From NCBI GenBank assembly GCA_964374105.1, contig CAYJXI010000001.1:199743-263742 (forward strand): a stretch of 64,000 nucleotides of DNA, written 5' to 3'. Below the pieces are notes generated by a model, which ran no database searches, was not told where the DNA came from, and saw nothing but the letters and a program-made list of their open reading frames with translations. Below are positions 9,001-54,890 of this stretch, one piece after another. The position numbers and the translations under genes are program-made. This DNA is from an uncultured Planctomycetales bacterium. Its GTDB lineage: Bacteria; Omnitrophota; Gorgyraeia; Zapsychrales; JANLHA01. Each line of letters opens with the position of its first letter. Within the stretch, counting starts at the first letter, position 1.

Positions 9001-12000
9001 ATTAAAGAAAGAGGAAGACGAACACCAGGCGGTCAATATCCGTATGGCCGAAGGGGTCGTTGAGAAGGTCATCGGAGATTATGACTACCTTTTGCCTTCC
9101 TATCCGATTCTTAAAGGTTTAGATGAGGTTTGGAAACGCCTTGAGCAGATTGAGCAGCAGTACGGGCGTATGTGGGATGAAAGCCTCAAGAACATAACGT
9201 GGAGGGGTGTCGAAGGAAGATTAAGAAATCTAGGAATTGATTCTCGAAAAATGAGGCTGGTGAAAGAAGTGTTCGATCGAGCAGATTTTAAGGAGGCGCG
9301 AAAGAGAGTCCGGGATTTACAGAAAGAAATGAGTCAAGTGCTAGAGAGGAAAATCCTGCAAAAACTAAAGACCGATCCCCGTTTAAGAGAACTCATAATC
9401 CTAGGAAAATGGCAGAGTGTGAAAGACGAGGTTGTCAGTATATTAAAGGAGATGGCCAAAAGCAGGAGCCAACTCAAGGCCACTTATGAGGTGGGTTATC
9501 CACTCCCCCGATTCCTCTTAGATGATGATGAGGAGGTGCATGATTTTAGACCTCTGGATGCCCTCATGGCGGGATTATTGGTGGCTATCTGGGTAGGGAT
9601 TGGGATTGTGGTTTCCACTCTCATTTTAGGAGCGGGGACATTAACAAATGCGATTATGATCTTGGGGATGGTTTATTTAGGCATCGCATTTGTCAAGTTC
9701 AATTTAATTTATGAGGTCGCTTTCCGGGCGATTGCCTTATGGAAGATGTCAGAGAAGCTAGGGATTCTCGATGAAATGAGACAGGGATTTTCTGAAAATA
9801 GAGAGAAGGAAATATTATCTAAACTGGCACCTCAGGAGATTCAAGAAATTAAAACAATCTCCATCGCCCGATCCGATGGGACCTTAACACCCGCCTTTGT
9901 TGCGTTAAGAGAGGATTGGTCTATTCCATCTTTATGGGGTAGAAATCATATTTATCGATATGTCAAAAATCAAATCCTCTGGCATGAAGAATTCAAATCG
10001 CATTGGGTGGGGCTCTTTATGATGGCCCCTGGGTTTAAGTGGATTTTAAACATAGGTCGATTCTTATTTGCCCTTCGAGCGATTATTCCTCAATTGGTTA
10101 TTGGGACGTTAACAATTCTGATCGGCCGGCAGATATTAAGCCTTTTGGGGATCAATGTTTCCTCTTTGTGGTCTTATTTTCTTATTGGTGCCATGATGAT
10201 CTTTAACCTTTGGCTGTATCATGATCTGACTTTCGTCTCCCGCAAATTAAAGGAACTCAAGAGAGGGAGTCAGATGGAACAAATTCTGGCCCTTGAGGCG
10301 CTTGAAAAGAAAGAACGTAAGTGGAGTAAACGGCTCATTAACACCCTTGGCGAGATTATTATCGATCAAGAGAGTCCGTATGAGGCTCGAGTAAAAGCCT
10401 TTGAGGTATTTAATCGCATGCTGATTCGAAATCCGCATTTCTTAACCAGACAGATGTTTGCCGACATTGTCGCAAGTTTTGGATTTTTTGATCTGCACAA
10501 TATGTTTACTCGCTTGTCACACTCCGTACCCTTTCATCTTTTTAAATTAGGGGAGATCCTGCAGGACTTGATTAATTACATTTATCAATTGGTTGAGCCC
10601 TTTAGTCGAAAATTCCAGCAACAGGTGTTACAGGTCTTTCAAGATTATTATCTTAGGGTGATGGTGCATTTACCAGAAGATATCCAGTATAAGGAAGTCA
10701 GCTTTATCAAAAGATTGATGGGAGAAGATTTGAAAGAGAAACGCAATCAAGGAGAAATTCTCTATCCATTAGAGACAATTAAAGCGGCCATTGCTATGAA
10801 GATTCAATTGCATAGGTTGCAAGATTTAGAGAATGTTACCCCTCTTGGCTTGGGGACAATGGAAAGGATCATCCAGTTTCTCGGCCAGGGTTATCCTCAA
10901 CAAACGCGGCAGTTCCTCGAGATGTTTGGTATCGATGAGTTTCTAAGGATTATCAGGGAAATTCACCAGACAGAAACCCATCGCCGCAAATCAGGGGAGA
11001 AGGTCGTGCCGTTGTCAGGCCAAGAATATTATGAAGAGATTCAAAAGAAGATCGAAGAGCGTTTAAGACAAAAGGAAGAGGGAGCTGCAACTGCCGGATC
11101 CATTTCTCATCTGCCAAAACGAGATGATCTGGATTATGCTTTCCCGCGTTGGCAATCTTATCAGTTATCATTGAGTGTCTTATTAATTTTATTGATGGGG
11201 TCGGCCTGGTTCCAAGAAATCCCTCTTTTACGTCCTTGGGGTGATTTGGGCTGGATGTTTCTCTTAAAAGTTTTACTTCCTGCATGGGTGAGTTATTATC
11301 TTACCCTACCATTCATCAATTTTATTCATGAATTGGGTCACAAGATTATTTTGAAGAAATTCGGAGTCAAAAGCAAAATTTGGCATGACAGCGAACGACA
11401 AATTTTGCGAACCCATCCTGACCCAGCCCAATTTGGGAAATTGTCTCCCAAGAAAAAAATTATTGTTTATCTTGGCGGTTTATTGGCCGAGTTTATTTTA
11501 TATTCATTGTTTGCGGTAGGGTTTGGTTTGAATCCATGGAATATGATGAACGGGTTATTATTATTCGCGCCGTTTAAAATTTGGTTAATAATGACGACTC
11601 TGATTGTAAGTATCGGTGTCTTATCGCAATTCCCGCCTTTCAGCCGATGGAATTCATTAAAGACGGATATAGAGAGGGTGTTAGAGGAGATTCGAAAGCT
11701 AAGCGGGGGCCCCACTTCGAAGGAGAAAGATCAGGAATCTAGAGACTCTTTCCTCAATAGTCCTTCTTTAAATAATCTTAACAATGGATTCTCTTTGAGC
11801 AATGACAAGGAAGACCAAGGAGACGGTGATCATGGGAAAAATAGAAAGCATACTCGTTATCTTAACCGAGGCTCAAGCGTTTCGAAATCGGAATTGATTA
11901 ATGCCTTGATGAAAAGAAACGGTAATCAAGACCGGGCAGCTAAGGACTTAAGTGTTACGGGGGGGACACTCTCTTGGCTCATCAAGACAAAATATAAGCT

Positions 12001-15000
12001 TAAGCCCAAGGTTTTAGCTATCAAGAAAAGAGTCAGAGAGCTCCTTGGTGCCTTCCAGATAACTCAAGGGAATGAAGATAAGGCCCGTGCTGTTTTGGGA
12101 ATGACAAAGGTTGATTATCAAAGGGAGATCCGTGAATACGGGTTAGAAGATCAATTGGCCAAAGAGAAAGAGATTGTTTCTTATCTCATCCAAAAACTCG
12201 AGGCGGCCTCGGGGCAAATGACAACTGTGGCCAGGGAGTCAGAAGAGTTCTCGGAACATAATGTAAGAACACTTATCAGGCGATATCAATTAAAGGAAAT
12301 CATCAACAACGCCAAAAAGCGGACCGGTGAATTGACTCAAGGTTTATTGGAGCACAACCTCGATATCGATCAGGCAGCTTTAGCATTAAAGATATCCAAA
12401 GAGGATTTAGAGAAAGAGATGGCCCGTTTTGGGACCACAGTCGAAGCACTTTATCAAAAATATCAAGCTGAGCGTCAAGAAAAAGAAAAGCGAATTTTGG
12501 AGGCAGTAGAGAACCATGGCCTCGATTGGAAGAAGGTGGTCGAGGCTTCAGGTTTCAGCGAAAACTACATTTTTGATGCTATTCATCGTTATCACCTTGA
12601 ACTCAAAGTGGTAAAAATTTTGGTGGACCACTTGCAAAGATTGCAAAAGACTTTATCCGAAGTCAAAAGTTTCAAAGAACTAAAAGGAATGTATGACCAA
12701 ACGGATCGGTTTACAATGAGATTCTTAAAGAAGCCGATCATTTTAGAAATGGCTTTAGAAAAATATCGCGGGGAAATTCTTTTAGAGGGAATCCGACGCA
12801 AGCAAGGCAACGAAACTCATGCCGCTAAGGCCCTAGGATTTTCTTTGCCTGGATTCAGGCGGAATATTCGAGTTTATGGTTTGAAGGATAAAATAAAGGA
12901 GATGAGAGAATTTGTCAAAAAGTTAATCCATACCTTCAAGACTCTTCAAGGGGACAAACAAAAGGTTGCTAAGGCGCTAAAGATGAAGGTGGATAGATTT
13001 GAGGAAGAAGTTGATCGATATGGATTAAGCGATTCCTTTGAAGAGATTCAACTAAGGGTCGATGAACTGAAAAGCCTACTTAAGAAATCCGCAGGCAACC
13101 TTTACCAATTGGCCAAGGATTATCGTATACCATATGTCACTCTGCAGGAAGAAGTCAGTGGTCATGGATTAAAGGAGAAACTGCGCGCCATTCAGGATGA
13201 GACGAAACGCTTACGTCAGTCATTTGAAGCTGTGAGCGGCAACAAAATGAAGGCCGCTAATAAGCTGAAGATCACGGTTGAGGAATTTGACCATCGGATT
13301 GAGGAGTATGGATTGGCGGAGGTTATCCGTAAGACAAAAGAGAAGATCGATAATTTAAGGGATCTGATTGAGGAAACCGGAGGTAATCTTTCTAAAATCG
13401 TTCGGATGAAGATCAAAGGGATGTCTGAACCAATGGTATTTAGAGATGTTCAGCGTTACGGTTTGATGGGATTGGTTCAGCAATTGCGTCGGAAGGATAA
13501 GCCGAAGGTATCTGAAACTCCGTCTGTGACTGCCACGTTGTTTACTCAACGCAGGGCGTGGCTGAAAAACTTGCCGGCACGATTGATCTTCAGTGTCGCC
13601 ATTATAATTCAAGAATTGGTGCATTTGATTGCGGCGTCTCTTCGTGGATTACCCATTAAATACTTTGGGATTGGGCATCTGTTAAGTGCAGTCGAAATCG
13701 ATTACGCTCGCGCGCCACCGGTGGATGAAATGATCGTACGGTTGGTCGGCCCATTAGCCAATCTTTGGGCGGGTCTTGTGGGCCTTATCTTGATTGTTGC
13801 CTTTGACCTTTCTTTGATCCCACAGGGATTTCATTTGAGTTTGGCGACATTGCTCCAATTTTTCACTTTGATCAATTTCGGATTATTCATAAGTGATAGT
13901 GGCCTATCCCTTCTTTTTAAACGAGGGGATGTTTGGGAGGCTTGGGAGGCTTGGAATGAAACCCATTTGCAAAGGTATTTTGCTCAAAATCAAAATTGGC
14001 AAAGCGCCATCTATGAATTATCTGTCTTAAAAATGAATGGGATAATTGCGGGATTCGCTATTACCGGAAGCTTCTCCCGTGGACAGTTTCATTCAAAGAA
14101 AGGACATGACTTTGATCTCACCATCTTTCCCAAGACAGGATTGATGGGGGAAATGTACTTGGCTATCGAGAAGCTGGATAAAAAATACCGGGATCAACCC
14201 TTGCGTGTTCATATCACCCTTGAAGCCTATGGCCCAACTTACCAATTCTATGAAGAGGACCATCGGATAAAACTTGTTTATTACATGGTCCGAGGGGATC
14301 GAGTCCTTGAAAAGATGATCGAAAAAGATCAATACAAGAGCGATCGCCTCATTGATATCACTCATGAGAATTTAAGTATTTTCACCCCTGCCTTTTTGGC
14401 CAGATTGCATCGAGAATTAAGTTCACTGAAACGTCTCAGTTTGGATGAGCTTCAACATCTTATTCGTGAGCCACCGGTCATTAAGGTTCCTAAAGCCTAC
14501 GTTCCTCACTCTCAAAATCAACCCGGGGACGACACTCCGCAGACGCAAGAGGATTCAGAGGAGCATCCCATTAGATCAGAGAACATGTTTGCTCAAGGAG
14601 CGAAGGAAGAGGATCCATTCATCGCTGATCGATTCAATCTCTTAGGCAGGGCTTTGAAAACCCTCGAGGATAAATTAAGGGAGGATATCACCAAATCCGG
14701 CCAGATCATTGACCTTCCGGAATCGGCCTATTGGGTTGTCTACCGAACCAAAGAAGGACAAATTATTTGGAATCTGAGCAAAGAAAAGATTCGGGAGATC
14801 TTGCTCAATAATAGTTTTGAACCTGAAGAGATCGAGTTTGTCATCGATCAAATCGAACTGCATGAACAACAGCCTAACGAAGGGCTCGGCCTAAAGAAAC
14901 AACAGGAGAGCTTGATTGAGATCAGGAATTTAGAATTAGAAAAATTAAGACATGAAAAAGAAGTCCGAGGGGAAATGGCCCGTCTTGTCAAAGAAAGTTT

Positions 15001-18000
15001 TGATCTTGATAATCAGTTTCCTGAGTTTGAAGACCTGGCAACGCTTTTAAAGAAATTCAGAGACTTCAATGAAAAGAAATGGACATTAACAATTGGCAAG
15101 AGAGGAACAACCGCGATTACACCAGTTGTCGGGTTTGGGGTTATCCAATTTTATTCCTTAAGGCCCGGAGTAGAATACAGAATCTTTATGTCCTGGCTCC
15201 CTTTTAGCGGTATTCGGATTTATTTTGGGCATCCGTCACACGTGGTGGCCTTTGAGGTCAATGCTTATCGAGAGCATGTCGATAAGAAAATAAAGAAAAT
15301 GACCCACATTGGCGATCGGGTTGATTTATTTAAGACAGAAGTTCCTGAAGAAGAATCCTTGGAATTGTTTATCTTAAAAGATTTAATTGGTGATTTGGTT
15401 AAGACAGAAGAAGAGTTTGGCTTACTTCTGGAATTGAGAAATGAAGAGACCGCTCAAAGGATGTTAAACGATCTCATTGCGGAGAATATCGTCGAGGAAC
15501 TGGATCTGGAACAAAAAGCAAAACCGTATGTTATTGAAGATATTCCTCCGGGAGTCCAATTGAGCCTTGAGAGGTATTTAGCGCGCTTAAGGCAGGAAGA
15601 AAGGGCTTATCAGGAATCAATTCAACGAAAAGAAAAGGAAGTCATCACTCCCCCCATCCCCCAGGAGGACGTTTACGAGCTTCTTCAGAAAGCAGAGGAC
15701 AAAATCATTTTGGAAGAGCCAGAAAAGGTTCGGCTCGAAATCGAAGAAATCCCCGCCGAAAAGATGGAGGAGTATAAAACACAAATAGAACAAGAGGTTA
15801 AGGAGAAAGATGAAAAGGAGAAAGAAGTTGTTCTGGAATACCCATCGTTGAGTGATCAAGAGATCTTAGAGTTTGTTCAGAAGATCATTGAAGATGATAT
15901 CACTCTTCAAGGAACAAGGCTCCATCATCCACAATGGCTTAAGTATTATCTTTTCGAAGGGATGTCCTCAAGGAAGATCAGCACGTTAGTGAAAACTTCA
16001 GACTCCAACGTTCGTCGCAGGATCAGAGAAGATAAAAAGCGTCTTATGACAATCATGCGGATCAAGTATGGAATATCACAAGAACGGATGAGGGAAATTT
16101 TTAAAGAAAAGGCGGATAGGTCACACTGGCCCAAGGAATATGACTTCTTAGAAAAAATTATTGGAGAGGAAATCCCTCGGGAAGCAACAAGGCTAGCGCA
16201 TCCAGAATGGCTTAAATTCTATCTTTTTGAGGGGAAGTCCTTCAAGGAGATTGCCCGGATTGCCAATACCTCAAAATCGAATGTGATTCAACGGGTAAAA
16301 AATGATGAGGAGCGTATTACCACGATCATGAGAATCCAATATGGAATATCGGAAGATCGGATGAGGGAGATCCTTAAAGAAAAGGCACAGAGGGCTCGCT
16401 GGTCTGTGGAATATGATTTCTTAGATCAAGTCAATGCCTGGTTGAAACAGCCCAACCAATTCCCATTACCTTATAAATTCAATTTGAAGGATACTGATCG
16501 CAATAGTGTCTTGGTATTCAATTTTCTAGGCATTCCTTACCGAGATTTAAAATTCGGCAAGATCAGTCCCAGGAATGATTTTGAATTTGGATATGTTTTA
16601 GAAGTTTTTAGTGAGGCAAACAAAGCAACAGAAGCATACCTCATTGCTGATCAACGTGGTCGAAGACCCCAAGTCTTCTCTGATGATGATTTGATGTTTC
16701 AAGGCAAGGGGGCAGATACCCAATTGCTCAAATGGGCCCTGGCGAAAAGTTTGGCTATCAATATCACTTGGGCCGCAAAACCACGAAAGATCCATAAAGA
16801 TTATTCAGGAAAGGATACAACTGGATCCATTGATCTTTTTGAGATTAAAGATGGCAAACTGAAACCCACCCGCGCGCGGCTGCCTCCCACATACACCTCC
16901 CAAAGGCCTCTTATCCCTTATATCAGTGCAGAAGAATTCACGACCTTTTTAGAAAAAGGCTATTCTGTGATCTTGCTTAAGGAACAAGGGACAACGAAGG
17001 TGGTCATGAGGGTCATCATAGGACGATTAAATAATCAATGGGTCGTTGAAACCGATTGGGAGGGTGATTATACGGACTGGAAGGAGAGCAGTATTCGTGA
17101 AAGAATTTTTAGTGACTTGCAGAAATTTTTTGAAGGACAAAGGCTAACGGTCCCGAATCTGAAGGATCTTGTTGTTAATTTCACAGAAAGAAAAGGAAGA
17201 AAAGTGGCAACCGCTTACTTGGGCGGCTTGATCTATCTAGGGACTCGCTATCCGCACATTTCCGTTCAAATCGGAATTTTGCGATCTGCGCCAGGGGAAT
17301 GGCTTTTGGGTTTATGGGAACCCAATCGGGATAAGAGATTATCCCAACCTTTTAGGATTTTAAAGAAAAAGGGTGATGTTTGGATCAATGTGAAAAATGT
17401 TAAGGTTCGATACTTGAACCAAAGGGATCTTCTGCCAAGGGCCAGCCTTCAGACACCGATCGAATTTTTAGAAAGATTTAAAGAGACTGCCCAAGGATCG
17501 CATTTCATGAAAAATGATTTCATTGAAGAGGTCAAGAGACAGCTTATGATTAACCGAACTTATATTTTGGAAATCCTGTCTAAGGTTCTCAAGCTGATCC
17601 CTAAAGAGCATGGGGCCGTTGAATTCCTGGCTCAGATTGTCCGCGAGGTCAATGATCCCATTTTGACCAATCATATTCAACTTTATTCCTTGCCTTACTT
17701 TGGGACAGCCCTGATGCGTCAGAGAAGTTACGATTGGGGAGAGGAGATTAACAAAATTTTGTATCCCCAGGGACGGAAAGGTGAACATCAGGGTAATCAA
17801 AAGGATAAGAAAAGGAAAAGTAGAAATAGAAATAAGGATAAACTCAACGACAGCAAAGATGATGAACAAAGAAATGGCGGCCCTCACCTGACTGACGGTC
17901 GGGGCGGCCCCCGCCAAGGCGGGGCAGGCCGCTGGCCGTGGATGGTGCCGGTGTATGAGGGAATTGGTAAATTGTGGCCACGTGGCCACAATTGGTCCTG

Positions 18001-21000
18001 GAGTGGAGAATTCATCAACTGGGTTGTTGCGTCAAGCTTGATTGAATCCGGGCTTTTTGTCGGTGGTGGGATGATTGCGATTTTGAAATGGGCCTTCGGG
18101 TTGCCACTTATTTTAGGGCCTCCGCAAGCATTGGTCATTGTCGTTTCCTTCTTTATTCTGCAGTTGATGTGGCATCTCCTTCACGGCCCAGAGGCTTTCA
18201 CCAAAGATAAAATTGCTATTTCAAGATTAGCGGTTATCATCCTTGCCTTAACATTAAGTCTTATCAGATTTTTTGATTTAACGGGTATTGTGTTCTTAAC
18301 AAGTATTGTGCTGGCCATCATATTGCCACATGCGGTTATTAATGCTTTCAGGGAAGGACAACAATTGAGCAAATTCAGTGCGGGAGGCGGATCCCAAGCG
18401 GGAAGAATTCATAAGGCATTACGAAGGTTTCCAAACACGAATTTCATTGGTACGAATAAAATCCCGGTCGTTGGTGGCGATATTTTGAATCTTATGTTTG
18501 GACATGAGGGCCAGGTTCAAAGAGTCATTGGCCATGAGTCCGTATTTTTTACTCATCAACTGGGCAGAATACAAGACGTTGCCGGTCAAATTCCAAACTT
18601 TAATATTCATTTTGGGGATGAGCGAAACAGCTTCAGCGGTTTTAGTAAGCTGTTGGATACATTTGGGATGATTTCTAAGATAAGTGACGGCTTTGCGGGG
18701 AGTGAGGTCAAATGCTTCAATTGCTTCAGCGATCATCAGCCGATGCCAAACCTCGGCAAGAACGATCACCGAGGTAAAACCAGGAATTTCTTTATTCTCA
18801 ACGCGGATAAGAAAGTCAGTGCAGGAATCGATAATCCCGAGAAAATGGTAAATGAAGATATTGGAATCAATGAAAATCGATTGACCCTCAGGAACCTTCG
18901 AGAGCATTTAACCTCCCAGGGGGGTGAAATGGGGAGATTCGGCAATGATTTTACCGAATTTATTGCGGACATGAATGATCGCCTTGGTAAGCCGGGCTTT
19001 GCTCTTTTCATTTTCAATAATGAGCTCTACCTTTTGGTAGTTGCGCAAAGGCAATTTCTTGAGGGGGCGGATAATGCCTTTTTCGTAGATGCCAGCAATT
19101 TTGATCATAATTCATCTCCTTATGCAGTTTCGAGTATAGCTTCTTCGAAGAAGAAAGTCAACCCCCAAAATCGGCGAAAACAAGAAAAGGTGAATCTCCT
19201 CTTTAAGCCCGAATGGACGATTTTCTCTGACGATTCACGAACCCCGAATCACGATTCCAAAGAAGAAGGCGGCCCCCGCCAAGGCGGGGCAGGCCGCTGG
19301 CCGTGGATGAAGAAATTTTATAATTTCTTTGGTCAAAGATGGATGGGCCAGGCCTTGATGCCTTCCTTGGTTGAATCCGGCGGTTTTGTGGCGGGGATTG
19401 ATTGGCTATTATCTCTTGTCTTTGGTTTACCTTACGATTTGAGTCCACCGCATCTAGGCCGTATTGGGATTCTGCAGTTGGTCTGGCATCTGTTGCATAT
19501 CCCACGAGGAAAACCAAAAGAGTCTGTCAGTCCCGCCAAGGTCAGCATAACGGTTGTCAGTTTATTGTTGTTAGGATTCCTGCCTAGTTTTATGAACTTG
19601 TCTTATATCTTCTTAACTATTTCTTTCATTCTGAATTTCGTACATTTTATTGTTAATCTGTTTAACCCATGGGAGGAAAGTCCACAAGGATCATCCCTAG
19701 GCGAAATCAATCCTTTTGGTTTGAAATTAAAGATGGTCCTGGGTGTAAGCCTTTTAGGGATGGTGTTCATGGGATCTCTGTACGTGATGGGGGGATTGGA
19801 TTGGTATCTTACCTTAAAGAATACGCTCATTGAAGGAAATCTTGTGACTTGGAAAGTAGCGTTCATAGATATGGTGACTGGCGCATTTCTCTGGGGTTTT
19901 GGAAATGTGATTGGGCAATATTTGGTCAAACACCCGGCCCGTATAGATTGGCGCCATAATCGATTGGTAACGGCCTTTGGTTTGGCCGGCGGGTTGGGGA
20001 CGCATGTCCTTTACAATTTATTAATGGGACTGGCCATTACCGGTGGAATCAAAAGGATGTTATTTATCCTTATGGGGGGACTCGTGTTGACGCTGTTATT
20101 TACCGTTTCCGAATCCCTGGCCCGACGGTTATTTAACATCAAAAAGTTTTCGGTTAAGGATGAGCAGGCCAAAACGCTTGATGTCCTGGCCATCAAATTC
20201 CTCATCGCCTGGCCGAAGTCCTTCATTGTCGCTAATCTCTTACCTTTACCGCTGCAGGTCATCAGTGAACAGATTTGGGATTATTTCTTGAAACCGGTCG
20301 AGTCCTATCTGATGAACCGGGACAAACCATTATTTGTTGAACCAATATTGCATCGAGTTGTTTGGCCGATGTACCTAAGGGTCAGTTCGGTAATAAACGG
20401 TTTGCAAAAATTATTCCTGGATGACCGAGGTGTCCAAGTGAGAAATTTTGTTCAGGAGTTGTATAGATTACAGCCTCCGCTGCCCATTTTAGATGAAACA
20501 GGTGTTGATCACCAGCGTTACCCTGGGGATCATGAATATTTTTCGAATTTTAAACAGCTGTCCACATTACCGCGGCATAGCACCCTTGGACAACCCGCTG
20601 TCTTTAGTCCATCCGAGACCACATTTTTCCTGATGGCGCATCTTCCTGTCCAAAAAGGGGACTCTGTTTTGGATGTCGGTACCGGCACCGGGGCGTTGGC
20701 CTTTCATGTCCTAAGGCAGGGGGCTAAAGAAGTGTTGGCCATTGATATTGATGAACACGCCGTAGCCACGGCCAGAGATAATGTCAAAGATGCCGGCTAT
20801 GCCAGGCGCATCAAAGTTCGGCAAAGCGATGTGTATGCCAATATTCAAAGAGAAGAAAAATTCGATCTTATCGTATCAGCGCCGCCGTTATTTGCCGAGG
20901 GACGACGTTCTGATCCAGCCATCTATGATGAAGGGTACCGGATGATAAGCAATTTAATCCAAGGTGCCGGGGAACATCTGCGGATAAATGGACGGGTGGT

Positions 21001-24000
21001 CTTTCTCCATTTAATCGGCTCTTATGGCGGCCTGATGACTACGGCCGAAGCGGCAGGGTTTGATTTAATAACCTTGGCGGTTTCCTCTAATATGCCGTTT
21101 GCCATTTACCAATTAACCAGAAAGAAAGATGACTTAAGTTCACTGATGAAGGAGGAAGGCCGTGAGCCTCAGAAACTAAAAGAGATTATCCGGATAAAGC
21201 TTGAAAATTTGCCTCTCCCATCCGCTAAATTTATTCTTGAAAATTTAATCCTGAAATCCACGTATCAAGACCCAGAGATCAAGAACTATCTTTCGGCTCA
21301 GGCGCGAATGGCGCTTTTGGCCAAGGCCTTGGCGGTTTCCCTGAAAAGAAAGGATGCAAATGAGATGGCCGTTTACCTTGAATCTCTCCTTAAGGAATCT
21401 CGCCATTTGATCCTACCTTCTGCACTAATGTTTATCCGTTCTTATTTAACCGTGTATTATCTTAAACAACCGCTAAAGCTTGCCTTTGTGATTCCTGTTT
21501 ACGGCGGACAGAAGGCCTTCTTGGATTTTAAGGATGGCGGAGAGGGCTGGTTGAGGTTCAAGGTTGATCAGTTCTTTGTAGAATTGTTATCGGTCAATCC
21601 AAAGGTCAAGGGAAATTTCATCTTTGTCAATGACGGAGATGATTCAGCCAAGACCGGAAGAAAAACTAGTGATGTGATCCGCGACCTCCTTAAAGATCCT
21701 TTTTATGACAAGGTGCGTGGACAGATCTTTGTTCTCGATCTGCCGCAGGAGACCAAGGTTAAGATGAAAGGAAAGAAACATAGTGCGGTTGCGGCGGGAA
21801 TGAAGTTTGCCTTGGAAAGAGGAGTGGATATTGTCATGTACACCGACCCGGATCTGGCCAGTCATTTGGGATTGAGTGGACTCTTGGTTGATTCTTTGAT
21901 CAACCGCGGATTTGACATGGCGTTTGGTTCGATTGAAATGAAAGGTTCAATTGTTCCTATTCGTTCATTCAAACGCCGTGTTGGGACTCTTGCTTATAGT
22001 CTTTGGGTGAGGATTAATCTTATAAGATACATTCTTAAAGTGAAAGATACCCAAAGGTCTTTCAAGGCCTTTAAACGAGAGATATTAGAGAAGATTATGC
22101 CTATTAGGAAAATGAGTGCTGATCAAAATGGGATCATCCAGCTTAAGGATTATGATCCCGATTTCCATTATGATTACACCGGTGACACCGAATGGATGGG
22201 GCGCGTGAAGATTGTGGGAGGAGGTTTAGAAGAATTCCCGATCGTTTGGATTGATTCACCGCAAACCGCCCAAACAAGTCTAAAGAAAGATGCCTGGCCG
22301 ATGTTTAAGGCCCTAACAGGGCAGAGAAGATCTTTAAGGAATTTTGCCTTAAAGCATTCTGGATTACGATCAACAAATCACGACCCGCAAAACAAGGGCC
22401 GTAACGACAAGGCGTGGGTCTTAGAGGATTTCCGGGATGCTCCCAAGCTCGAGGTTCGGGATGAGAGAAGTCTAGGCTTCGATCCTTGGCGAGATTTGAT
22501 TAAGGAAGTGGATACTTCTTTATTGAAAGAAGCGATTGGTTTGATTCAGCACACTGATGAATTCCCAGGGCAAAAGAGTTTGGTGAATATCCTTAAAGAA
22601 CTCATGAACTTTAGGCGGATCTTTTTTGCTAAGAACCTGCCTGGGATGTTTAGGGCCGAGCGACTCAATGAGGGAGCATATTTGATTTTGATCGATCAAT
22701 CATTGCATTGGTTATTTGGCGGAGCGGACTCTCTGATTCGTATCCGCAGTCCTTCCCCCCGTCAGAGAAAAGCCCTCTTAGCTTTCCTTGCGGCCAAACT
22801 TCTGCATGAGGCCGCGGAAATCCTTATGTCGAATCATCCTAAAGTGCATTGGCATTTGGATGAAAAAGATCCCTCCCTCACTACAACCGAACAGGTTGCC
22901 TACTGGGTTGAGGTGATTTTCTTAAGCCGTATCCCCGCCTTCTGGTTTGATTTTAAGAAATTCCTTAATCCCACAACCGTCTCTCCCTTATTTGTTCTTT
23001 ATGAATCTGTTTTTAGTGGGGAAGAATCTTTAGGCCGTTCCCCGGATCAATCTCCCAAGCCGTTAAGGCAGTTCCTGGCTACTTTAGGTTATCTGGCACC
23101 TTTACAGACTAAACTCTCCCGGGAACTTTTCAAACATATCCTTCAGCAGTTCGATGTTAATCTAGCGGAATTTGAAAGGCAAGAGAATCTTCGGGATTTG
23201 ATTGAATCCACCGTTGGTATTGCCGCGGCGCATTTTGATGACAGTCCCATCGGACGGTTAGCAACTGGAGTAATGATCAGCCGGGATTTTCTTATGACCA
23301 GTCTTCATGTTGTTGAGGATGAACAGGTACGGTTGCAGTCCTTTTTCAAGATTTATATGTTTGTCCCGAGGTCAAATGGCAACAGCCTTTTAAGTAAGAA
23401 ACCCAAGATGTCTGAAGCGAAAGTCGTGGCTATGCATCTCAACCAGGATTTGATGTTATTGAAGATCGATCCAGCCTCGATCCCGTCAGGGATTGTCTTA
23501 AGAGAAGTTAAGCTGGGGTATCAGGAGAGCTTGAAGGGAGGAATGCCGTTAATCATTTCCACCCTTCGTTCAGATGAAAAAGCGATTGATGAGAAGGCAC
23601 CGAGAATTCAGATCACCTCCACTTTGATTCCTCCTGTCGAAGAGGACCTCATTTATATGAAATTTGCTTCATGGAAAGGAGTGAGTGGCTCGCCCGTTGC
23701 TGAACGAGGTGGGCGCTTGGTGGGGATTTATATCGCGACTGAAAAATTAGGCATGAAAGATAAGGGTGTCGCGCATTCCATTGGGGCTGTGCGCAGCATG
23801 ATCGAGACATTGAAGATTCCACTGTCGCAGAGTCACGGCCGTTCAGCAGATCATAAAAGTGACAGTCACTCCCGCCATGGCGGGATGACTGTCACCTTTA
23901 GAGAAAAAATTAAGAAATGGTTAGTGAAGGCAATCGAATTTCAGGATAATATAATTCGAACATCACGAATTCCTATCTTTAAGTTTTTAAGGCTGCTATC

Positions 24001-27000
24001 TTTTGTCCTCAGGAGTTTGGGGAGACAGACGTTCAACCTGCCGTGGCTGGTTGAGTGGTTCTCATCCTGGCGTTTTCTTGGGATGGGAAAGATAGCGGCC
24101 TTTGTATTCAAAGAAAAAGGTGATCCCGCCAAGGCGGGATCACCTTTCCCCGCTGAGATATCAAAAGAGCAGCATGGATTCCTTGGGAATTTGGATCAAG
24201 ACCACTTAAGGAGTCTTCAAAGAATCGTTGAGTCGAATCGTGGTTTTGAATCCGTTAAGGAATTTAATCGTATCCTAGGTTCCTATTATGGGATTAAAGT
24301 CGAATTCTATTATTTCACAGACCCCTTCTCACGTTTCCCACCGACGCCCTTTGTGGCGGCTTTCCATCGCCAAACTCAACTGAGAATCTTTTTCTCCTCA
24401 GTTCATTTCTTGAATCAATTCAAAGTTCATTTTAGGAATCAGTTGTCTTCTGTTTTACAGTTGATTACAACCCATGAATATATGGAAGTGGTCCAAAGGA
24501 AATCTCACCAAATGGTTGATAAACAAACCAGCCAACTTTATAAAGACAGAGAGCAAGGCACCTTAATTCTGGAAAAATTAGACGAATTCTTTGGGACTAT
24601 GTACCTTGTCAATGCGTTTCTTGATTTGGAGAAATTGACGAGTCCTTATTGGAATGTCCGCAAGAAGACGCAAAGGCTGGCAAAAAAGGGCGGCCTTCAA
24701 GGGGCGGTTATCCCGGCAACAATGCTCATTCGCCATCAAAATAAGGATGGCCCTGAGGCCAAGGTAGTGGATGAAATGTTCCGTCAGGGTTGGCTTAAAT
24801 TTGTTCATTTAAGTGAAGAGGTTGTTTTATCCCACAATCCCAGGTATACCTATCAAGCTGTTTATTTGATTGATATCCCAGAGGAAAAGATGACAAGCCG
24901 TGATGTTCCCCTCAAAAGCCTTAAAGAATATCTTAAATTGGGAGAAGAATACCTTGGAGAAGAATCTTCTTTGGAGGAAAGAAGAGGCCGTTCGAAAGAT
25001 CGTTCCCGCCCCCTTCCCGGCAAAGACATGCCTTCAGCGGATGACATCAAAAAAGAGCTCCTGAGAGTTTTAAAACCTTATAAAAATGTCATTAACGAGC
25101 TGCCCCTCTTGAAGCCCAATAGCCCTGCGATGATCCAAGCATGGGCATTTTTAAAGAGAGATAAAGATCATCCCACTTTGGCACCTGCGCTTGAAACCTT
25201 TGCCAGAGAAGGCCGTATCCGGGCCGGGCCATTTGAAGGCTTCTTGGCTACAGTTTATCGAGTGAAGAAAGGAGGAGAATACATCCTTCTTTCCACCGCC
25301 TATCCGGAATTCAATTCCACCATCCAGAGAGCAGCCTCTCTTATTCATGAAATTGGTGCAGTCAGCCTATTTCATCTAGATCATCCAATGAATGAAAATA
25401 GAGAAAGGACCTATTTGACCGAGAAGGTCAGTGAGCTGATTTATGAACTTCAGTATCGCTCCACCGATGAGATGTTCGCTGACTTGGCGAATCTGCGTCA
25501 TTATTTTTCCGAGGGACATCTCGAGCAATTGATCCATTTAATCTTAATCCAAAAGGGTCTCCCTCAGAAAACAATAGCTTATATCATTGGGATTATCTCA
25601 AGTTTAGCCGAAGCTAATAGGAAGATATTTACACCGAAAAATTTAAAGGCGGTGCTGGAATTGCTGGCAGAGAAAGAAAAACATCCCATGATGGATCAAT
25701 TGATTCTATTGTTTAAGGATGCCAATCCACCGGCTTTCACAATCGAGAATCTGGCCTTTGTCATTGACTTCATATTGACTGTAATTGAATTCCAAGAAAA
25801 AATTGTCGAGGTTATTTACATTTTTAAAAAGATCAATCCTCTTTCATTTGACACAACGAATTTTAATACTATTCTTCCCCTGGCCGAGGAGGACCGGACA
25901 GAGGTGCGGGAAACCATGTTACGCGTGGCTAGGATCTTTAGAGAGGCGAATCCTTCCGTGTTTACTGCGGCTGGATTGTCCCAGCAGTTTGTCCGATTAA
26001 GGACAGAAACAGAAATGAAGTTTCTCATCAGTCGACTAAGGCTAGTGGCTATTTATTTTGAGGCGGATCAGGGATTAGCACAAGAAAAAATCTGGAATGA
26101 TTTATGGGATCTGCCAGTCATCTTGGAATATGATGATTATTTGGTTGCTTTCTATGACACGTTGGCCTCACTGATCAAAGCCAATCATACCATCGTTAGC
26201 GAACCTCATCTTGAAAGATCCATTGGCAGCTGGATCAATGATTTTACGGATCCGGGAGGGATGTTAACGGGTGGTGATGTAAAAGTGATCGCGGCAAGAC
26301 TTAGACTGTTGCATGTCTTTTTACGCGCTAACAAGACCTTGGCTACCGAATCTCGATTCGCCCGGGTGATGATTTATTTATCGCAGGGGCTCAGTTTTGA
26401 TCCTTTGATCCTTCGGACCAGTTTTGAAATCTTAAAGACGTACGCAGAAATAAATCCTGATCCTAAGTTTTTCTCAGAAGATCATTTGAGCATTGTCATT
26501 AAAAGTTTGGTTGAAGAAGTACCCAAACCGGGAGAATTCGAAAAGCCAAAAAATCCCCACCGAGTTGATATTGTCAAAATATTTAAAAACATCAACCCGC
26601 AATCATTTTCTTATAAAAATTTATTGGCAGTGATTTACTTTTTTGCTCAATCGGATGAACTGGTACGACAACAGGCCAGTCAGATATTGGACATCTTTAT
26701 TGAGGTGAATCATCATATTATAGACGATTCGATCTTACGGGCCTTGGTGGTGGTTAATTTGATCGCTGAGGAATTGTATTCCGAAGCTATTCAGGCAACC
26801 CAAAGAGTCAGGGGGCTACTAGGAAGGGAGCCTTTTGATATTCAAGATTATGATCTCATCGTAAGAAATTATCTGCCGTTCCTGGAAACCTGGGAAGAGA
26901 AAATCCGTGCGTATCAACGCCTTAAGGCAGGGGAAATAGAAGGATTTGATTTTAAGGCCTGGCGGGAATTTATATTAGACCTTACGAAAGAACAGGGGCT

Positions 27001-30000
27001 TGTCTTTGTTTGGCTTTTGGTGTGGGATATGTTGGAATTAAGAGAAAGAACTGAGATTCTGGATGATTTGCCTGTCCGAATTGATTCTTCGGCAGATCGT
27101 TGGGACATCGAACTGATATTCGGAAGAAAAGGGATCTTTGATGCTTTAAGCTCATTGGAAGTCCATGATCGGCGCAATGCACAGACAGCTGTTTTAAACT
27201 ATTTCGGCAAAATCAAATGGATTCAGAAACGCTTGAGCCGTGATCCGCGGATGAGTTTCTTATGGGAACTGGATGAGCCATCCTTAAGGGACTTGATTAC
27301 GATTATTAAAATTACCCATACCAATAGCACCTTGGTCTTTAATGCCATGACCATGGCGGAAGTTTTACCTGAGGAAATTAGAAGTCTCATTAAGGTCATT
27401 CCGTTTAATAACACTTTAACTGCGGTGATCAACCTTTTCGGTGAATATGCCAATTTCATCATGGATTTGCGCAGTAACGGCAAACTCAAATTTTTAATCG
27501 AAATGCTGACCTTTGTTGGTTTAGAGAAGAAACAATACTCGCTCACTCAAATTGAAGGGATCTTGGGCTATCTTGCTGAACACAGATCCAAAGTTCTGAG
27601 TTGGAGTAAAAAAGATTTTCAAGATTTTGAACTGGATTGGTATTCCTATTCAAAGGCCATCCCGATCTTCCATTCTCGCCTGTTTGAGTATTTTATTAAG
27701 TATCAAGCTCAGGAGCACCTGATTCAGCAAATGAGTCAGGATGTCCAGGAGGAATTATTGGGCATCGCTTGGGGCAAATTTAAAGGATTAAAGGGAAATT
27801 TGCGAAAGTATGGGATGACCGATAGGGATGAATTTGTTTTGCTGCAAAAATACATCCCAATCAAGGGATACGGGCCTACCATTTATGCGGATGTCTTTCA
27901 GAAGTTGACCGAGGCTGTTGAAACAAGAAAGATAACAAGAGAGGATGAACCAGAATCTTATCTCTTAGATCAAATCCTTTTGGTGAGAGGAGAACGGGAG
28001 ATCAGACATCTTAAGGGATCAGAAAAATTGAATGATCAATGGATGGATCAGATGCTGAAACTTTTTGCTGAGCCGCCAGCGGAAAGTTTGTCTTTATCAG
28101 AGCGTATAAGTCAATATCTTAAGGAGGGTCTCTGGTCTAGAGAGCTAATGGAGCAGTCGGCGATCATGTGGCTGTTAGCAAAACCCACCTACCAAGAACG
28201 GTTGTCGAAATTAAAGAACAGATTAGAACAATTTGATCGTTCTGATATGACTTTGCAGATCGAAAGCTATCTACAATTGATGGAGGATATCCAAGTTTTC
28301 CTCTCGGATACCTGGGAAAATGATTTAAGGGATGCCCGCAGTCAACTCCTCAAAGAAGTGGTGGAAAAAGAAAGAAAGGCGGGTTTAATTAACTTATCAA
28401 CGGGTTTAGGAAAAATTGCTGTTGTCAAAATGCCCCGGAAGAAACTGAAAGCGGTCTTTGCAAAGATTGCATTGCCCTTTGATACCCTTTCTTTAAGTCA
28501 AACATGGGCCCAGGAATTAGGTCTAACGTTGTGTGATAGGAATTCTCTGAAGCGGCTGAAGGAAGAATGGAAAGTCAAAATGATTGAGTACATTATTTCA
28601 ATCTTTAAGAAAGAATCCAAAGGGGAGGTGGCCGAGGAGACTAAGGCAGCAATTAATGAAGCTTTTGATCTTATGATTTCAAAGGAAGAAGAACGAAGAA
28701 GCAAAAATGAGTTAACCAATGAAGAAATCCAAAAGATAACTTTAGATTTGGAAAGAAATTTACGGGAGATATTTAAATCCAAAGTTCTGTTATTGGAAGA
28801 AGAGACGCAGAAATTTGAGACTATCACACTTCCGGGGATGGGGAATACGGTGGTGATGGGACTCTTTGGGGATCCCTTGAATTTGATGTATTGTCAGGGA
28901 GAATGTACTTTCCGCGATTGGCCAAGGGCGATCCTTGATCAAAGATACTTTTATATGAAGTTATTGATTAAAGAGCCCGGGGTGGAAAGTGGAGGGCGTG
29001 TCTTAGGGGGAGCGCAAGTACAATTTTTAAAAGAGACAATCAGAGAAAGAAAAGTGAAAAGGATGCCCCGGGGTTGGGCGATTTTGAGTTTACCAGGGAT
29101 CAATATGGACGAAGGGATCGATAAGTATGGGATCGGAAAGCGCCAAGGGATAAGGTTCCTGTTAGAATTTGCCCAGCGGTTAGCCGAGGAAACCGGACTC
29201 CAAGGAGCAGTCATCCCCATCGATATTTTGATCCGCCACCAAAATTCTGAAGGACCCGAGGCAAAGGTGGTTGAAGAACTGATTCAAAAGGGGTGGTTGA
29301 AACCGGTCAAGTTGAGTTCAACCGTGGAACTAGCCCCTAAAACAGAATTCAATAATCAGTATACTTACGAAGATGTGTATCTAATAGATATTCCTAAAAA
29401 CGAGATGATGACAAAGGAGACACCTTTTTCAAATCTCAAGGAATATCTGGAAAGGGAGGAACAAACACCGTCCCTTGTTGCCAATCTTCCCGGGATCGGG
29501 GTGTGGATGCGGGTCTTATTGGCAGGGGGAATCTTGCCGCATGAGTTAGGACACCTCATCGTTGGGCCTCAAAAGGGTAGAAGGTTAGATTACGGCTTAA
29601 GGAGAATTCTGAAAGGCCTTTTCTATGCTATGCCCTGGCCAACCCGAGGGCCGCCGGCCTTGGTTGGTCTGGCGGTGAATCTCTTCTTGGCGGTTGTTTT
29701 AGGGCTTTTGATCTGGTCAGGTTTATTGAACTTTGGGTTTACATCGAATTCTTCGGCCTTTCTCTTCTACCTCTTTATTTCCAGCCTTATCGTATTTCTT
29801 TTGGAAATCCTGCTCACCCCATTTGCGGAAAGCTTAAAGATAAGCCGATTTGCGGATTTAAGACAGATGAAAGGTGATCCCGCCATGGCGGGATCACCTT
29901 TTTATATCCCAGGGCCGCTGCGAGTGTTCAACCGACCGTGGCTTCCTGCACCACACAGGGTGCAGGACCATGAACCCAATTCCGTACCACATAGGGTACG

Positions 30001-33000
30001 GGACGGTGAACCCTACGTGGTTCACCGTGTGGTTCATGGGGTTGAGCTCTTCCCGCCTCAGGCGGGAGCAGCGGCCCTGTATATATTTAAAGGAAGAAAT
30101 ATTATAGAGAAAGACAGTATAAGTATAACATCTGCCATTGAGGGGATGCCAAGGCCTAAGTCCAGTGATCAAAGCAGGCATCCCCTTGATTTAAAGGATA
30201 TGTCATTCCCGCGCCCGCCCGAGGCGGGTCCGCCTCTGGCGGAAAAGCAGAGATCCAGAAGGTACTTGTTTCCAAAATCCCGGATTCCTTCTTACGCAGG
30301 AATGATAAAGGTTGATAACGGGCCGCTACAGAACGTTCTTCACCTGGATCCGTGGCTGGGTGAGAGCACTTCGTCTGCGCTCAGCGCAGACGAACCACTT
30401 GCACCACCACAGGAAGGTAGCATCTCTGCTTTGAGGAGAGGCAGAATGCACCGAACACTTCCTATTAAGGAAGAACCTGTGGTGAGGGGTGTAGCGGCCC
30501 TACTCATAAAAAACTTTGTCCATCCACACGGTGGACAAATCTGCCAAAACTGTGTCGCTTTACTCCTTAAATCTGATATTGCTCAGGAACTTATTCAACA
30601 GTTGCGGGAAATCTCTGGTGCCATCCGCTGGATCAATGGCCATCCGTATTTTAAGATCGGCCCGATGGTTAAGATCCTTGAGGGTTTTGTTCGAAAAGGT
30701 CTCATGGCACAATCTGAGCTCGAGGCGATTTATGTTGAAGAAGACGAGCACGGTTACCACGCCACGCACATGAAGACAAGCACGCAACTCATCCACGCCC
30801 CCCAATACGCCTGGATTGGGGCAAAGAAGAAGGCTAAGGAGGATGAGGCACTCTTTGATTTTAATGAATTCCTGAAGTTAAAGGGCTGGAGGGCTCGTAA
30901 GGCCTTCAGGAAGCATTCCCAATTTTTAAACAACACTGAGAGGTTTGCCTTAGGGGCAAGAGACTTTATTTTGAGATTAAGGACGATCAGAGTGCCTTAC
31001 GAAGTCCAGTGGTGGGTTCTGGAATTTTTGGCACGATCAACCGGCTTTTGGAGTCTAAAGCAAATAGAAGCTTTGGTTCAAATCATTTTTAGTCGACAGG
31101 TTGATGATGAAGTCTTGAATTTATTATCTCGTTTTAACAATGTGAGAGGGATTCAACATGTCATTGGGAGGCTAGCGAAAGAATATCATCTGCGGCGCTC
31201 GGCAAGCATAGAACTTTATGTAGCGAAATATTTAGAGGATAAATATAAGGCCACGATTTTGGCTTTTAATGAAGAGATATTGGATAACAATAAAAAACCT
31301 ATTGCGGAATTTGATGTCATCTTTAAGCCTTATCGGCGAAAAACAATTGTCATCGCAGAGGTTTTCAGTTTCTTGCTTCAACCCGATCAAAGTTTTGTAT
31401 ATGAACGCACGATAGAAAAATTTGAAGAGAAGATCAGCAGGATAACTGATCCAAGAAACGATGATTGGATGATTTTAGAAAAGCTTAAATTTAGGGATAT
31501 CAAAATTTTATTGGTGTTTGAGCCAAGTCAAAAGCAATATTACGAAAGAGATTTATTTGGGGTGATCCAAGATGCATTGCAACAGAGCAGTTCAAAAAGA
31601 AAATTGGAAACGCTCTTTATTTCATTTCCGACATTAATCATTCAAAAAGAAGAAACATACGATCATGTGAGTTATACCAAACAGAAAGCGACTGATCGTA
31701 GTGTCTATTACGGTGTTTATTCTTACCGACCCTTCCATCAACAAACCACCTTAGAACAAGAAGGGAAAATGAGAAGAAACATCATCTGGTTGCGGTCAAA
31801 GATCTTAAAAGCGCTTATGAAACAAAAGGCTAAGGAAAGGAAGGAGCAGAAACTTAAGGAGAGACAAACATGCGCCAATTGTTTGACTAATCAACTCCAT
31901 CAAATGGGTTTGAGAGAAAAGTCCACAGATCTTATTCGACATTTAAGATCCAAGCTCGGGAGTATAAAAAGATTTCCTCATTTAAGTAATCCGGTTTTTA
32001 ATGCCAAAATCGTTAATGAATTTTTGCCTGAGGATATCACAAAAAAGATTTATCTTAAATATTTAGATCGAATTGATCAAGAGATCATTTATCACGTCAG
32101 TCAAATTCCCACCGCTATTACGCTCTGGGATCTGCGTCACGAAATTCATTTTTGGGTAGGGGCGAAGGTAAAAGAGGAAGAAAAAGGGGACAGTCCCCAA
32201 AGAAAAAGGGGACAGTCCCCAATTATCCAGTTGGATTTGTTCGATTTCATTGCTGAGAGCGCACTTAAGGCAAAAGAGGAAAAAGAATCACAAGTAGCAC
32301 AACAACCCAAAGGAGACTTTGTGTCAGCAGTCTTTAGCCAGATTGTTCCCCTTATTAAGAATAATCCACGGATTTCCATCATCCAGATTAATTATAAAAT
32401 TCAACCCTTTTATGATCCCCTCAGCGGGTGTGACCGATGCTTCGTAGAAGGAACCGTTGTTCATGAAAAGAATAGCCAACAGGAGAGAATAGGTTGGTTT
32501 GATTTTTATGTTTATCCTCAGGAGAAGATTACCATCGAACATTATTTCCCCATTGGAGTCCCAGGTTCTAAGACTTGGGAGGAATATCGTAACGTTGGTG
32601 TCAGTCAGACATTCCTCTTTTGGCTTTCGACCTTCGCTAAAACCATTGATGTTGATTTAATTACCATTAACTCCCAATGGCTGGTGGACATGTATATTTT
32701 TGGCAAATACTTTGCGGATCGGATTGGCATCCGTGATCCTAAAGAGCCAAAGATAAATTATTACGAACTTAAAGGTGGCGAACATAAAGGCATTTATGCT
32801 AACGAAAAGATAGGGGTGCTGACGGTTCATGATGTCGAAACCGTGCAAAGAATCGGTGCCGTAAAACTTAAATTTGATGCTTTAAAGGATGAATACGAAG
32901 TATCAGAGAAAATACTTGGGAGTATTCTGGAGGGAACAAAATTAACAATCATTAAGGGATTTGTTTATAAGGACAACGGACTTTTAGGATTCATCCACGA

Positions 33001-45727: not shown

Positions 45728-46228
45728 GCCCATGACCCGCACTTTGACCAAATCCGCAAAAATGCCTTTAATGGTGATGATCCCCAAAGATCACAAACCC
45801 AATCTCCCAACGACCCCCACCGCGCGAAGGAGGGCGACCGTGTTGAGACAGACCATCCTTTAAGACCAATCAGCCAGCTGGGCGCCGTTTTGTGGCGATT
45901 TTATCAGCCTCGGGTGGCATGGGGATTTTTAAGAATTGCCTTTTCAACGACCGTGGCGAATTACCGGCACCTGCGCCATCACGGTATTCGCGGGGCGCCA
46001 CTGGGACGAATCCAAGCCGCACTCCGCGCGCCCTTCTTCAAAACCGCCGAACGTATTGACGGCCTGCCGCGGTGGAATATCGACCGCCATCTCCTCCCCG
46101 AAGATATCCAGCGCCTCGTTGACATCCACGAATCGCAACCCTGCTGCCGCTTGGGTAACCGCGAGATGGCGATAACCATTCAGAAAAGGGAAAGCAGACA
46201 ACGATCTAAAGAAAATTCAGCAGATGTC
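45728..46228 (+). other. Junction between the two giant ORFs. The single in-frame TAG (45725-45727) is followed by 54 stop-free in-frame codons that include a DPHRAKEGDR motif copy (45812-45841), then a ~400-bp GC-rich (~60%) block, before AT-rich ORF2 proper (an in-frame ATG is at 46229).
   Basis: Frame arithmetic: positions 2, 45725, 45812 and 45890 are all 2 mod 3. The GC-rich block shows ORFs on both strands in the provided track. Confidence 0.6.
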
Positions 46229-54868: not shown

Positions 54869-54890
54869 TATCCGCGGTCATCTGTGCCGT

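Follow-up and report, generated by a model that had tools for sequence, protein, structure and literature searches.

A methyltransferase, a GT2 glycosyltransferase and a serine protease in one stretch of a giant Omnitrophota protein

The giant genes of the Omnitrophota were discovered only recently and are poorly understood, and it is debated whether the enzymes that they encode face prey or the cytoplasm of the cell that makes them, and whether the long polypeptide is cut. Here we take up this question at a single locus, a window of 64,000 nucleotides from an uncultured Omnitrophota bacterium (GenBank assembly GCA_964374105.1, contig CAYJXI010000001.1, positions 199,743 to 263,742), most of which is taken up by one giant open reading frame (ORF). 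A preliminary description of this DNA had placed a methyltransferase, a family 2 glycosyltransferase (GT2) and a trypsin-like serine protease in series within about 3.2 kb of the giant ORF, and had read them as a self-contained machine for envelope remodelling or attack. The three domains are confirmed, all encoded in the plus-strand ORF 2..45727 and spanning 20591-23728, and two enzymes dependent on S-adenosylmethionine (SAM) and nucleoside-diphosphate sugars (NDP-sugars), together with a protease, in a loop free of transmembrane helices make a concrete, testable case for sidedness. Rather than a machine dedicated to attack, the stretch appears to be a mixture of shuffled domains peculiar to its lineage. 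On balance we favour an explanation in which it forms one long loop of a multi-pass giant protein, so that three membrane-tethered enzymes face the cytoplasm; the identities of the domains, the conservation of their residues, the lack of conservation of the trio and the absence of transmembrane helices between the domains are shown, whereas sidedness, the sugar acceptor and the role of the protease are the parts of it that we infer.

A hydropathy scan of the giant protein found 28 strongly hydrophobic segments grouped in clusters, and comparison of the protein with itself by BLASTP found no internal repeats. The protein is therefore multi-pass and non-repetitive, a repetitive adhesin is ruled out, and the earlier opinion that the locus is no simple adhesin holds, with enzymes present as well. 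Within 20000-24500 of the window, no competing ORF of at least 80 amino acids (aa) overlaps the three-domain stretch, the other strand included, and no tandem repeats were found. Feature coordinates are given in Table 1.

The first of the three domains is a class I SAM-dependent methyltransferase of the MTS/HemK type. It matches the Pfam model MTS (PF05175) with an E value of 8.3e-21 and 74.8 bits against a cut-off of 23, is also matched by about 35 further class I methyltransferase models, and has relatives in the PDB that include PH1915, MJ0882, TTHA1280 and HemK. Motif I (LDVGTGTG, aa 6890-6897, DNA 20669-20692) is intact and carries the class I GxGxG pattern, and the acidic end of beta-2 and motifs I-III as a whole are intact too. 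The predicted SAM-methyltransferase fold is thus genuine, and the domain probably binds SAM. With HemK/PrmC, Mtq2, RsmC/RsmD and the MJ0882-type MTS enzymes (PF05175) it shares the class I Rossmann fold, the GxGxG motif I, the acidic beta-2 end, and the length and order of the domain; it differs from them in sitting within a giant protein, in reading A-P-P-L at motif IV in place of (N/D)-P-P-(Y/F/I), and in its NCBIfam scores. The best of these are to the PRK14968-type 'putative methyltransferase', PrmC, TrmN, PrmA and HemK, all far under the equivalog cut-offs (85.2 against 162 for PRK14968.1-3 and 67.2 against 199.1 for PrmC), and by such scores it is not a PrmC/HemK orthologue.

The glycosyltransferase (GT) module that follows consists of a GT-A fold domain and a helical N-terminal extension, which is kept in three relatives (P0001-P0003) and at profile positions 1-80 of many others, with its helices predicted at low confidence only. 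Those three relatives, Omnitrophota fragments found by a word-indexed search, are 42-50% identical to the window over the GT module alone, and the nearest homologs are labelled Candidatus Omnitrophica or Omnitrophota. An exhaustive HMMER search with the alignment of the three (A1) returned 1258 representatives at E<=1e-3, 52 of them at E<=1e-30. Many of these relatives lie in proteins of 1000-7800 aa, and in several large proteins (P0010, P0011, P0012, P0013, P0014, P0018 and P0021) the module stands two or three times in tandem. The window copy is assigned to GT2 by transitivity, because its relatives match PF00535: 12 of 28 aligned members do so (best E 5.7e-11), and the small members P0053, P0080 and P0107 score over the cut-off. 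NCBIfam matches among the same 28 are all to polyprenyl-phosphate sugar synthases, namely AglJ (8/28), PpgS (6/28), Dol-P hexose transferase (5/28) and also PgfS.

An AlphaFold2 (AF2) model of the module, built on the 28-sequence alignment (A2), reached a pLDDT of 91.8 and a pTM of 0.92; it replaced a model from a four-sequence alignment that was unusable (pLDDT 50.5). Foldseek returned 278 PDB matches at E<=1e-3 headed by GT2 enzymes, as expected of a GT-A fold, with GtrB, DPMS and ArnC ranked first (E ~1e-10, probability 1.00). Similarly, the A2 profile matches Pyrococcus furiosus DPMS (5mlz) at E 2.5e-12, with the DxD and the D..GF region in register and the window DxD opposite the DAD of DPMS. 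By sequence profile and by fold, the closest GT2 relatives are polyprenyl-phosphate hexose synthases (DPMS, GtrB, ArnC, AglJ, PpgS). The window copy keeps every residue conserved in its family (D7211, D7282-x-D7284, the invariant D7349, K7355 and D7395/E7397), the DxD reading D7282-P-D7284, where 101 and 99, respectively, of the 118 family segments have Asp. The domain is thus a GT2, as first described, and looks catalytically competent. Features held in common with the polyprenyl-phosphate enzymes (DPMS 5mlz, GtrB 5ekp/9nyd, ArnC 9asc, AglJ, PpgS) are the GT-A fold, a DxD that ends beta-4, and a D-x-x-x-G-F-(K/R)-like motif whose Asp is conserved; differences are the additional N-extension of about 75 aa, an inserted beta-hairpin, the setting within a giant protein, and scores under every curated HMM cut-off.

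Upstream of the methyltransferase lies a conserved multi-pass transmembrane module of about 215 aa, which adjoins the GT2 module, on one side or the other, in at least five proteins (P0057, P0145, P0069, P0047 and L001); in some relatives it comes straight after the GT domain, as the membrane part does in DPMS and GtrB. The window copy is 30-40% identical to the first four and shares with them the invariant motifs W-Y, GQY, T-H and Q..DY. This module (A3) has no match in Pfam or the PDB; one member gave a single weak match to Mpv17_PMP22 (E 0.0095), which we judged insufficient for an assignment.

The third domain, separated from the GT module by a linker of about 300 aa, is a predicted chymotrypsin-fold serine protease with an intact triad. 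Its match to Trypsin_2 (PF13365) covers all 144 positions of the model (1-144), with E 1.2e-8 and a score of 36.3 bits where 27.6 is the cut-off; Trypsin (PF00089) matches at 22.5 against 20.6. As read by eye, the triad is H7769 (TSLHVV), D7816 (DLMLLKI) and S7895 (GVSGSP), with spacings of 47 and 79, in the expected order and with the GxSGxP pattern around the serine. The full-length Trypsin_2 match, the His-Asp-Ser order and the TxxHVV, DLxLLK and GxSGxP motifs are shared with HtrA/DegP-like and other Trypsin_2 enzymes (PA clan, S1), from which the window protease differs in having neither a PDZ domain nor a detectable sequence homolog and in probably facing the cytoplasm instead of the periplasm. 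In the linker, a zincin was considered and rejected, as the segment aligned with HEFLH of P0001 reads HPKVH in the window.

Comparison with the 150 best GT-family proteins (P series) and five genomic loci (L001-L005) indicates how the trio came together. A methyltransferase related to that of the window occurs in only two of the 150 (P0004 and P0039), at a different position, and the protease in none; neither a methyltransferase nor a protease lies near the GT module in L001-L005, P0001-P0003 or P0006. No examined relative has all three, which rules out a conserved three-enzyme cassette, and the supposed self-containment of the machine found no support in this comparison. In the closest locus (L001, 61% identity) the transmembrane module is followed by a charged linker of about 75 aa that runs straight into the GT module; with the methyltransferase, the lineage of the window therefore has about 200 aa that L001 lacks. 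Elsewhere the place upstream of the GT2 module is held by an APH-type phosphotransferase at a distance of about 100-150 aa (L002 ~9350-9575, L005 ~8950-9580, P0006 aa 2020-2261), and such different occupants of one position, methyltransferase, charged linker or APH, suggest domain swapping at a fixed junction. The GT2 module is a conserved, mobile unit that recurs in more than 1000 proteins, often in giant ORFs, and the methyltransferase and the orphan protease are on balance best taken as lineage-specific additions from domain shuffling.

The surroundings of the module in relatives are rich in sugar metabolism. The giant ORF of L002 encodes APH, the GT module, a GDP-mannose 4,6-dehydratase/epimerase and a UDP-glucose/GDP-mannose dehydrogenase, the latter two complete (~13370-15600; E 1e-121 and 1e-68) and with no transmembrane helix between them and the GT module. 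L005 combines PGM/PMM, HAD, GPI, APH, the GT module, a metallophosphatase and M50, and in P0006 the GT module is accompanied by GT4 and APH.

Which side of the membrane the three domains face can be approached through hydropathy and cofactors. Between aa ~6745 and 8575 no window of the scan reaches a hydropathy of 1.6 (the maximum, 1.51, falls in an amphipathic helix), so that methyltransferase, GT2 and protease would all lie on one side. SAM and NDP-sugars are cytoplasmic and unavailable outside the cell, and the nearest GT relatives work on the cytoplasmic face. From these cofactor needs, the side on which the GT relatives act, a K/R-rich segment after the last strong transmembrane helix (aa 6686-6704) and the helix-free stretch of L002, we infer a cytoplasmic position. 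GtrB, ArnC, DPMS and AglJ charge lipid carriers for envelope glycosylation. In the same manner, the GT2 module would take an NDP-sugar made nearby and transfer the sugar at the membrane surface, with a lipid-phosphate (polyprenyl-phosphate) carrier, serving glycoconjugates of the cell's own envelope, as the leading candidate acceptor. As for the protease, its substrate may be the giant polypeptide itself or proteins nearby; that it processes the giant polypeptide is speculative and follows what West-Roberts et al. proposed for C39 and S8 peptidases.

Several observations tell against this explanation, in its topology, its acceptor and the activity of its enzymes. The topology derives from reasoning on cofactors and a rough scan of hydropathy rather than from a dedicated predictor or an experiment, and aa 6726-6744, with a hydropathy of 1.56, may be a further transmembrane helix that would flip the predicted side. 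Moreover, in the published view Omnitrophota giants serve to attach to prey and to degrade cell walls, and the abundance of a giant protein was higher when V. archaeovorus was attached to prey (West-Roberts et al., 2023; 10.1101/2023.11.21.568195). Such a view accords with an outward-facing machine, whose domains are displayed or delivered to prey and glycosylate, methylate and cleave the prey envelope; the many transmembrane clusters imply some external loops, and a glycoside hydrolase (GH)-like gene (62018-63529) and an Rce1-like protease domain in the next ORF would be in keeping with it. We nevertheless consider attack of this kind decidedly unlikely, since SAM and NDP-sugars are not to be had outside the cell, the closest GT relatives are all enzymes of the cytoplasmic face, the GT module of L002 stands in a helix-free stretch with NAD-dependent nucleotide-sugar enzymes, and the trio is not a conserved unit. 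Envelope remodelling, the other half of the function first proposed, is compatible with a GT2 that resembles GtrB, ArnC, DPMS and AglJ; the outward attack is the half that the cytoplasmic cofactors, the lack of transmembrane helices between the domains and the context in L002 make improbable.

As to the acceptor, the window copy of the GT2 has no Pfam (including PF00535) or NCBIfam match even at E<=10, and the Foldseek matches, at 13-19% identity, have TM-scores of only 0.5-0.6. About 70 of 81 family members have fewer than two hydrophobic segments within 300 aa of the GT module (11 have two or more). In polyprenyl-phosphate GT2 enzymes transmembrane or juxtamembrane helices are fused to the catalytic domain, whereas the C-terminus of the window module has no fused helix, no hydrophobic segment of 1.6 or more follows for about 1100 aa, and the transmembrane module lies 290 aa upstream with the methyltransferase between. 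With few adjacent helices in the family and none fused in the window, a lipid-carrier acceptor is therefore not established. The module might instead be a soluble-acceptor, protein or polymerising GT that works in the cytoplasm alongside the adjacent kinases and sugar enzymes, in a pathway for sugars or a storage polymer; besides the lack of adjacent helices in most members and the two or three tandem copies in many, the APH-type kinase directly upstream in L002, L005 and P0006 and Foldseek matches to mannosyl-3-phosphoglycerate synthase and to the RmlT and TarP wall-teichoic GTs (E 1e-8 to 1e-6) point in this direction. Yet the top profile and fold matches are uniformly polyprenyl-phosphate GTs, and at least five proteins have the conserved transmembrane module directly beside the GT, so we regard a soluble or polymerising enzyme as unlikely and retain the membrane-surface GT2 as the better account.

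With regard to activity, motif IV (N/D/S)PP(Y/F/W) of HemK/PrmC-type amino-methyltransferases positions the target nitrogen. The window methyltransferase departs from it with the non-canonical SAPPLF (20876-20893), in which Ala replaces the N or D of PDB relatives (DPPAF in PH1915, NPPI in MJ0882, NPPY), and the absence of this residue makes the target of the methyltransferase, and even its activity, uncertain. For the protease, no sequence homolog was found in the PDB (phmmer), among 5.8e9 proteins or in the 150 GT-family proteins. One or more of the domains could accordingly be pseudo-enzymes that the giant scaffold retains for structure or binding: the similar methyltransferases of the giant relatives P0004 and P0039 are likewise without a clean motif IV, the DxD is lost in some tandem GT2 copies (e.g., ...FINAVAAYH...), and the protease offers no homologs for testing constraint. 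Against this, the window GT keeps all the acidic and basic residues conserved in its family, the protease its H, D and GxSGxP at typical spacing, and the methyltransferase its motifs I-III, and we hold loss of catalysis to be very improbable. The preliminary description had named substituted catalytic residues as what would speak against its enzymes; among the motifs, methyltransferase motif I, the GT DxD and the protease triad are complete, and a substitution (N/D to Ala) appears in methyltransferase motif IV only, which in part counts against this enzyme.

A bolder extension of the cytoplasm-facing reading has two parts, which we think improbable. First, the GT2 and the transmembrane module of about 215 aa might form a new permutable unit that charges lipid carriers with sugar, possibly flipping them, and that Omnitrophota would have built into giant proteins beside nucleotide-sugar enzymes; second, the orphan protease might be a cis-acting processing protease. 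In the former case one polypeptide, tethered to the membrane, would serve as an assembly line that starts from hexose phosphate and ends in lipid-linked sugar; in the latter, the giant gene would encode a polyprotein comparable to those of viruses, but in a bacterium. The viral 3C and NS3 proteases are likewise embedded in very long polypeptides, a likeness by analogy only, with self-processing here pure conjecture.

The locus fits membership of the multi-enzyme giant proteins already described from Omnitrophota. West-Roberts et al. (2023; 10.1101/2023.11.21.568195) reported giants ('Archaeovorins') with GT, methyltransferase and peptidase domains, many transmembrane regions and sugar-phosphate enzymes, and read them as tools of predation. 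A 2026 preprint (10.64898/2026.06.07.730766) classed many giants as 'multi-enzyme metabolic clusters' and argued that the enzymes of giants with transmembrane regions only face the cytoplasm. Like these, the window has one ORF tens of kb long, in which transmembrane clusters are numerous and GT, methyltransferase and peptidase domains lie scattered between long unannotated stretches; sugar enzymes such as PGM/PMM and GPI, described in both papers, occur in its relatives. It differs in its domains, a DPMS-like GT2 and an S1/Trypsin_2 protease where the papers stress GT5, GT1 and C39/S8 peptidases, and in that a Pfam scan of the giant ORF at E<=0.01 gave no SecA-DEAD, HEAT, NUDIX or GH domain, although such domains may exist in diverged form or before the window begins.

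Neither of the two texts contains 'trypsin', PF00535 or PF13365, and the DPMS-like GT2 module family, its accompanying transmembrane module and the S1-type protease are not in them. The GT2 family, with more than 1200 representatives that are often in tandem and in giant ORFs, partly escapes Pfam, and domain censuses of giants will therefore under-count glycosyltransferases. With the S1 protease, the protease classes that may process giant proteins number three, the other two being C39 and S8. These findings refine current views and overturn none.

A further domain of the preliminary description, a GT9 heptosyltransferase-like segment at 41010-42030, found no such backing. It has no Pfam or NCBIfam match at E<=10, the PDB search gave noise only, no homolog occurs in the GT-family protein set, and the homolog search returned one partial, unannotated relative. 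Motifs resembling the N- and C-termini of heptosyltransferases are visible by eye (VLVIHNIADGMGDE..., ...FFEGGMVHLAYHLGCP), a resemblance that may serve as a lead only. Of the domains first proposed, Pfam thus places the methyltransferase and the protease over their cut-offs and leaves the window GT2 and this segment unmatched.

Table 1. Features of the 64,000-nucleotide window, in window positions.
Feature	Position	Strand	Protein position and remarks
Giant ORF	2..45727	+	at least 15,241 aa; 5' end at window edge, gene may extend upstream
Helix-turn-helix-type matches	8786-8863, 11885-11971, 12488-12592, 16223-16294		giant aa ~2929-2954, 3962-3990, 4163-4197, 5408-5431; Pfam
Peptidase_M50 matches	~11303-12082, 13583-13858		giant aa ~3768-4027, 4528-4619; weak Pfam
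Multi-pass transmembrane module, ~215 aa	19709..20356	+	aa 6570-6785; no Pfam or PDB match; 30-40% identity to relatives
Class I SAM-dependent methyltransferase, MTS/HemK type (predicted)	20591..21121	+	aa 6864-7040; Pfam, NCBIfam, PDB matches
Helical N-terminal extension of GT module	21215..21445	+	aa 7072-7148; conserved
GT-A fold GT2 glycosyltransferase (predicted)	21446..22360	+	aa 7149-7453; family profile, AF2, Foldseek
GT2 motifs	NDGDD 21623-21643; DxD (YTDPDL) 21839-21856; invariant DTQ..FK 22046-22066	+	
Linker, ~300 aa	22361..23260	+	aa 7454-7753; no recognisable domain, no convincing transmembrane helix
Trypsin_2 (chymotrypsin-fold) serine protease (predicted)	23261..23728	+	aa 7754-7909; Pfam
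Protease triad codons	His 23306-23308, Asp 23447-23449, Ser 23684-23686	+	
Segment earlier called GT9-like	41010..42030	+	no search supports the assignment
Second very large ORF	45890-52798	+	2302 aa; starts 163 nucleotides past the giant gene
mutL and mutS	53009-57467	-	convergent to the giant operon
GH-like ORF	62018-63529	+	503 aa; weak TIM-barrel glycoside hydrolase matches: GH2_C E 2.5e-7, GH72

Elsewhere in the giant protein, the C-terminal 6500 aa (aa 8701-15241, window 26102-45724) have no Pfam match at E<=0.01 and four strongly hydrophobic segments only. Closer to the N-terminus there are weak helix-turn-helix-type Pfam matches to HTH_8/Fis (up to E 1.3e-8, above the cut-off), RWP-RK, HTH_23 and Sigma70_r4_2, which are odd inside a membrane giant. 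Two weak matches to Peptidase_M50, the site-2 protease family, lie inside transmembrane clusters; in the second, the transmembrane helix at aa 4528-4546 reads QELVH at the position of the M50 HExxH, and an M50 match is present in the relative L005 too.

In the second very large ORF, immediately downstream, aa 1413-1524 match an Rce1-like CAAX prenyl protease (E 9e-9), and the GC content falls to 0.37 at 50-52 kb, within the same ORF. Further downstream are the convergent mutL and mutS, TPR genes and the GH-like gene. The MutS protein is identical to that of a gene on contig CAMTXN010000015.1 (GCA_947085705.1), which is probably another assembly of the same organism.

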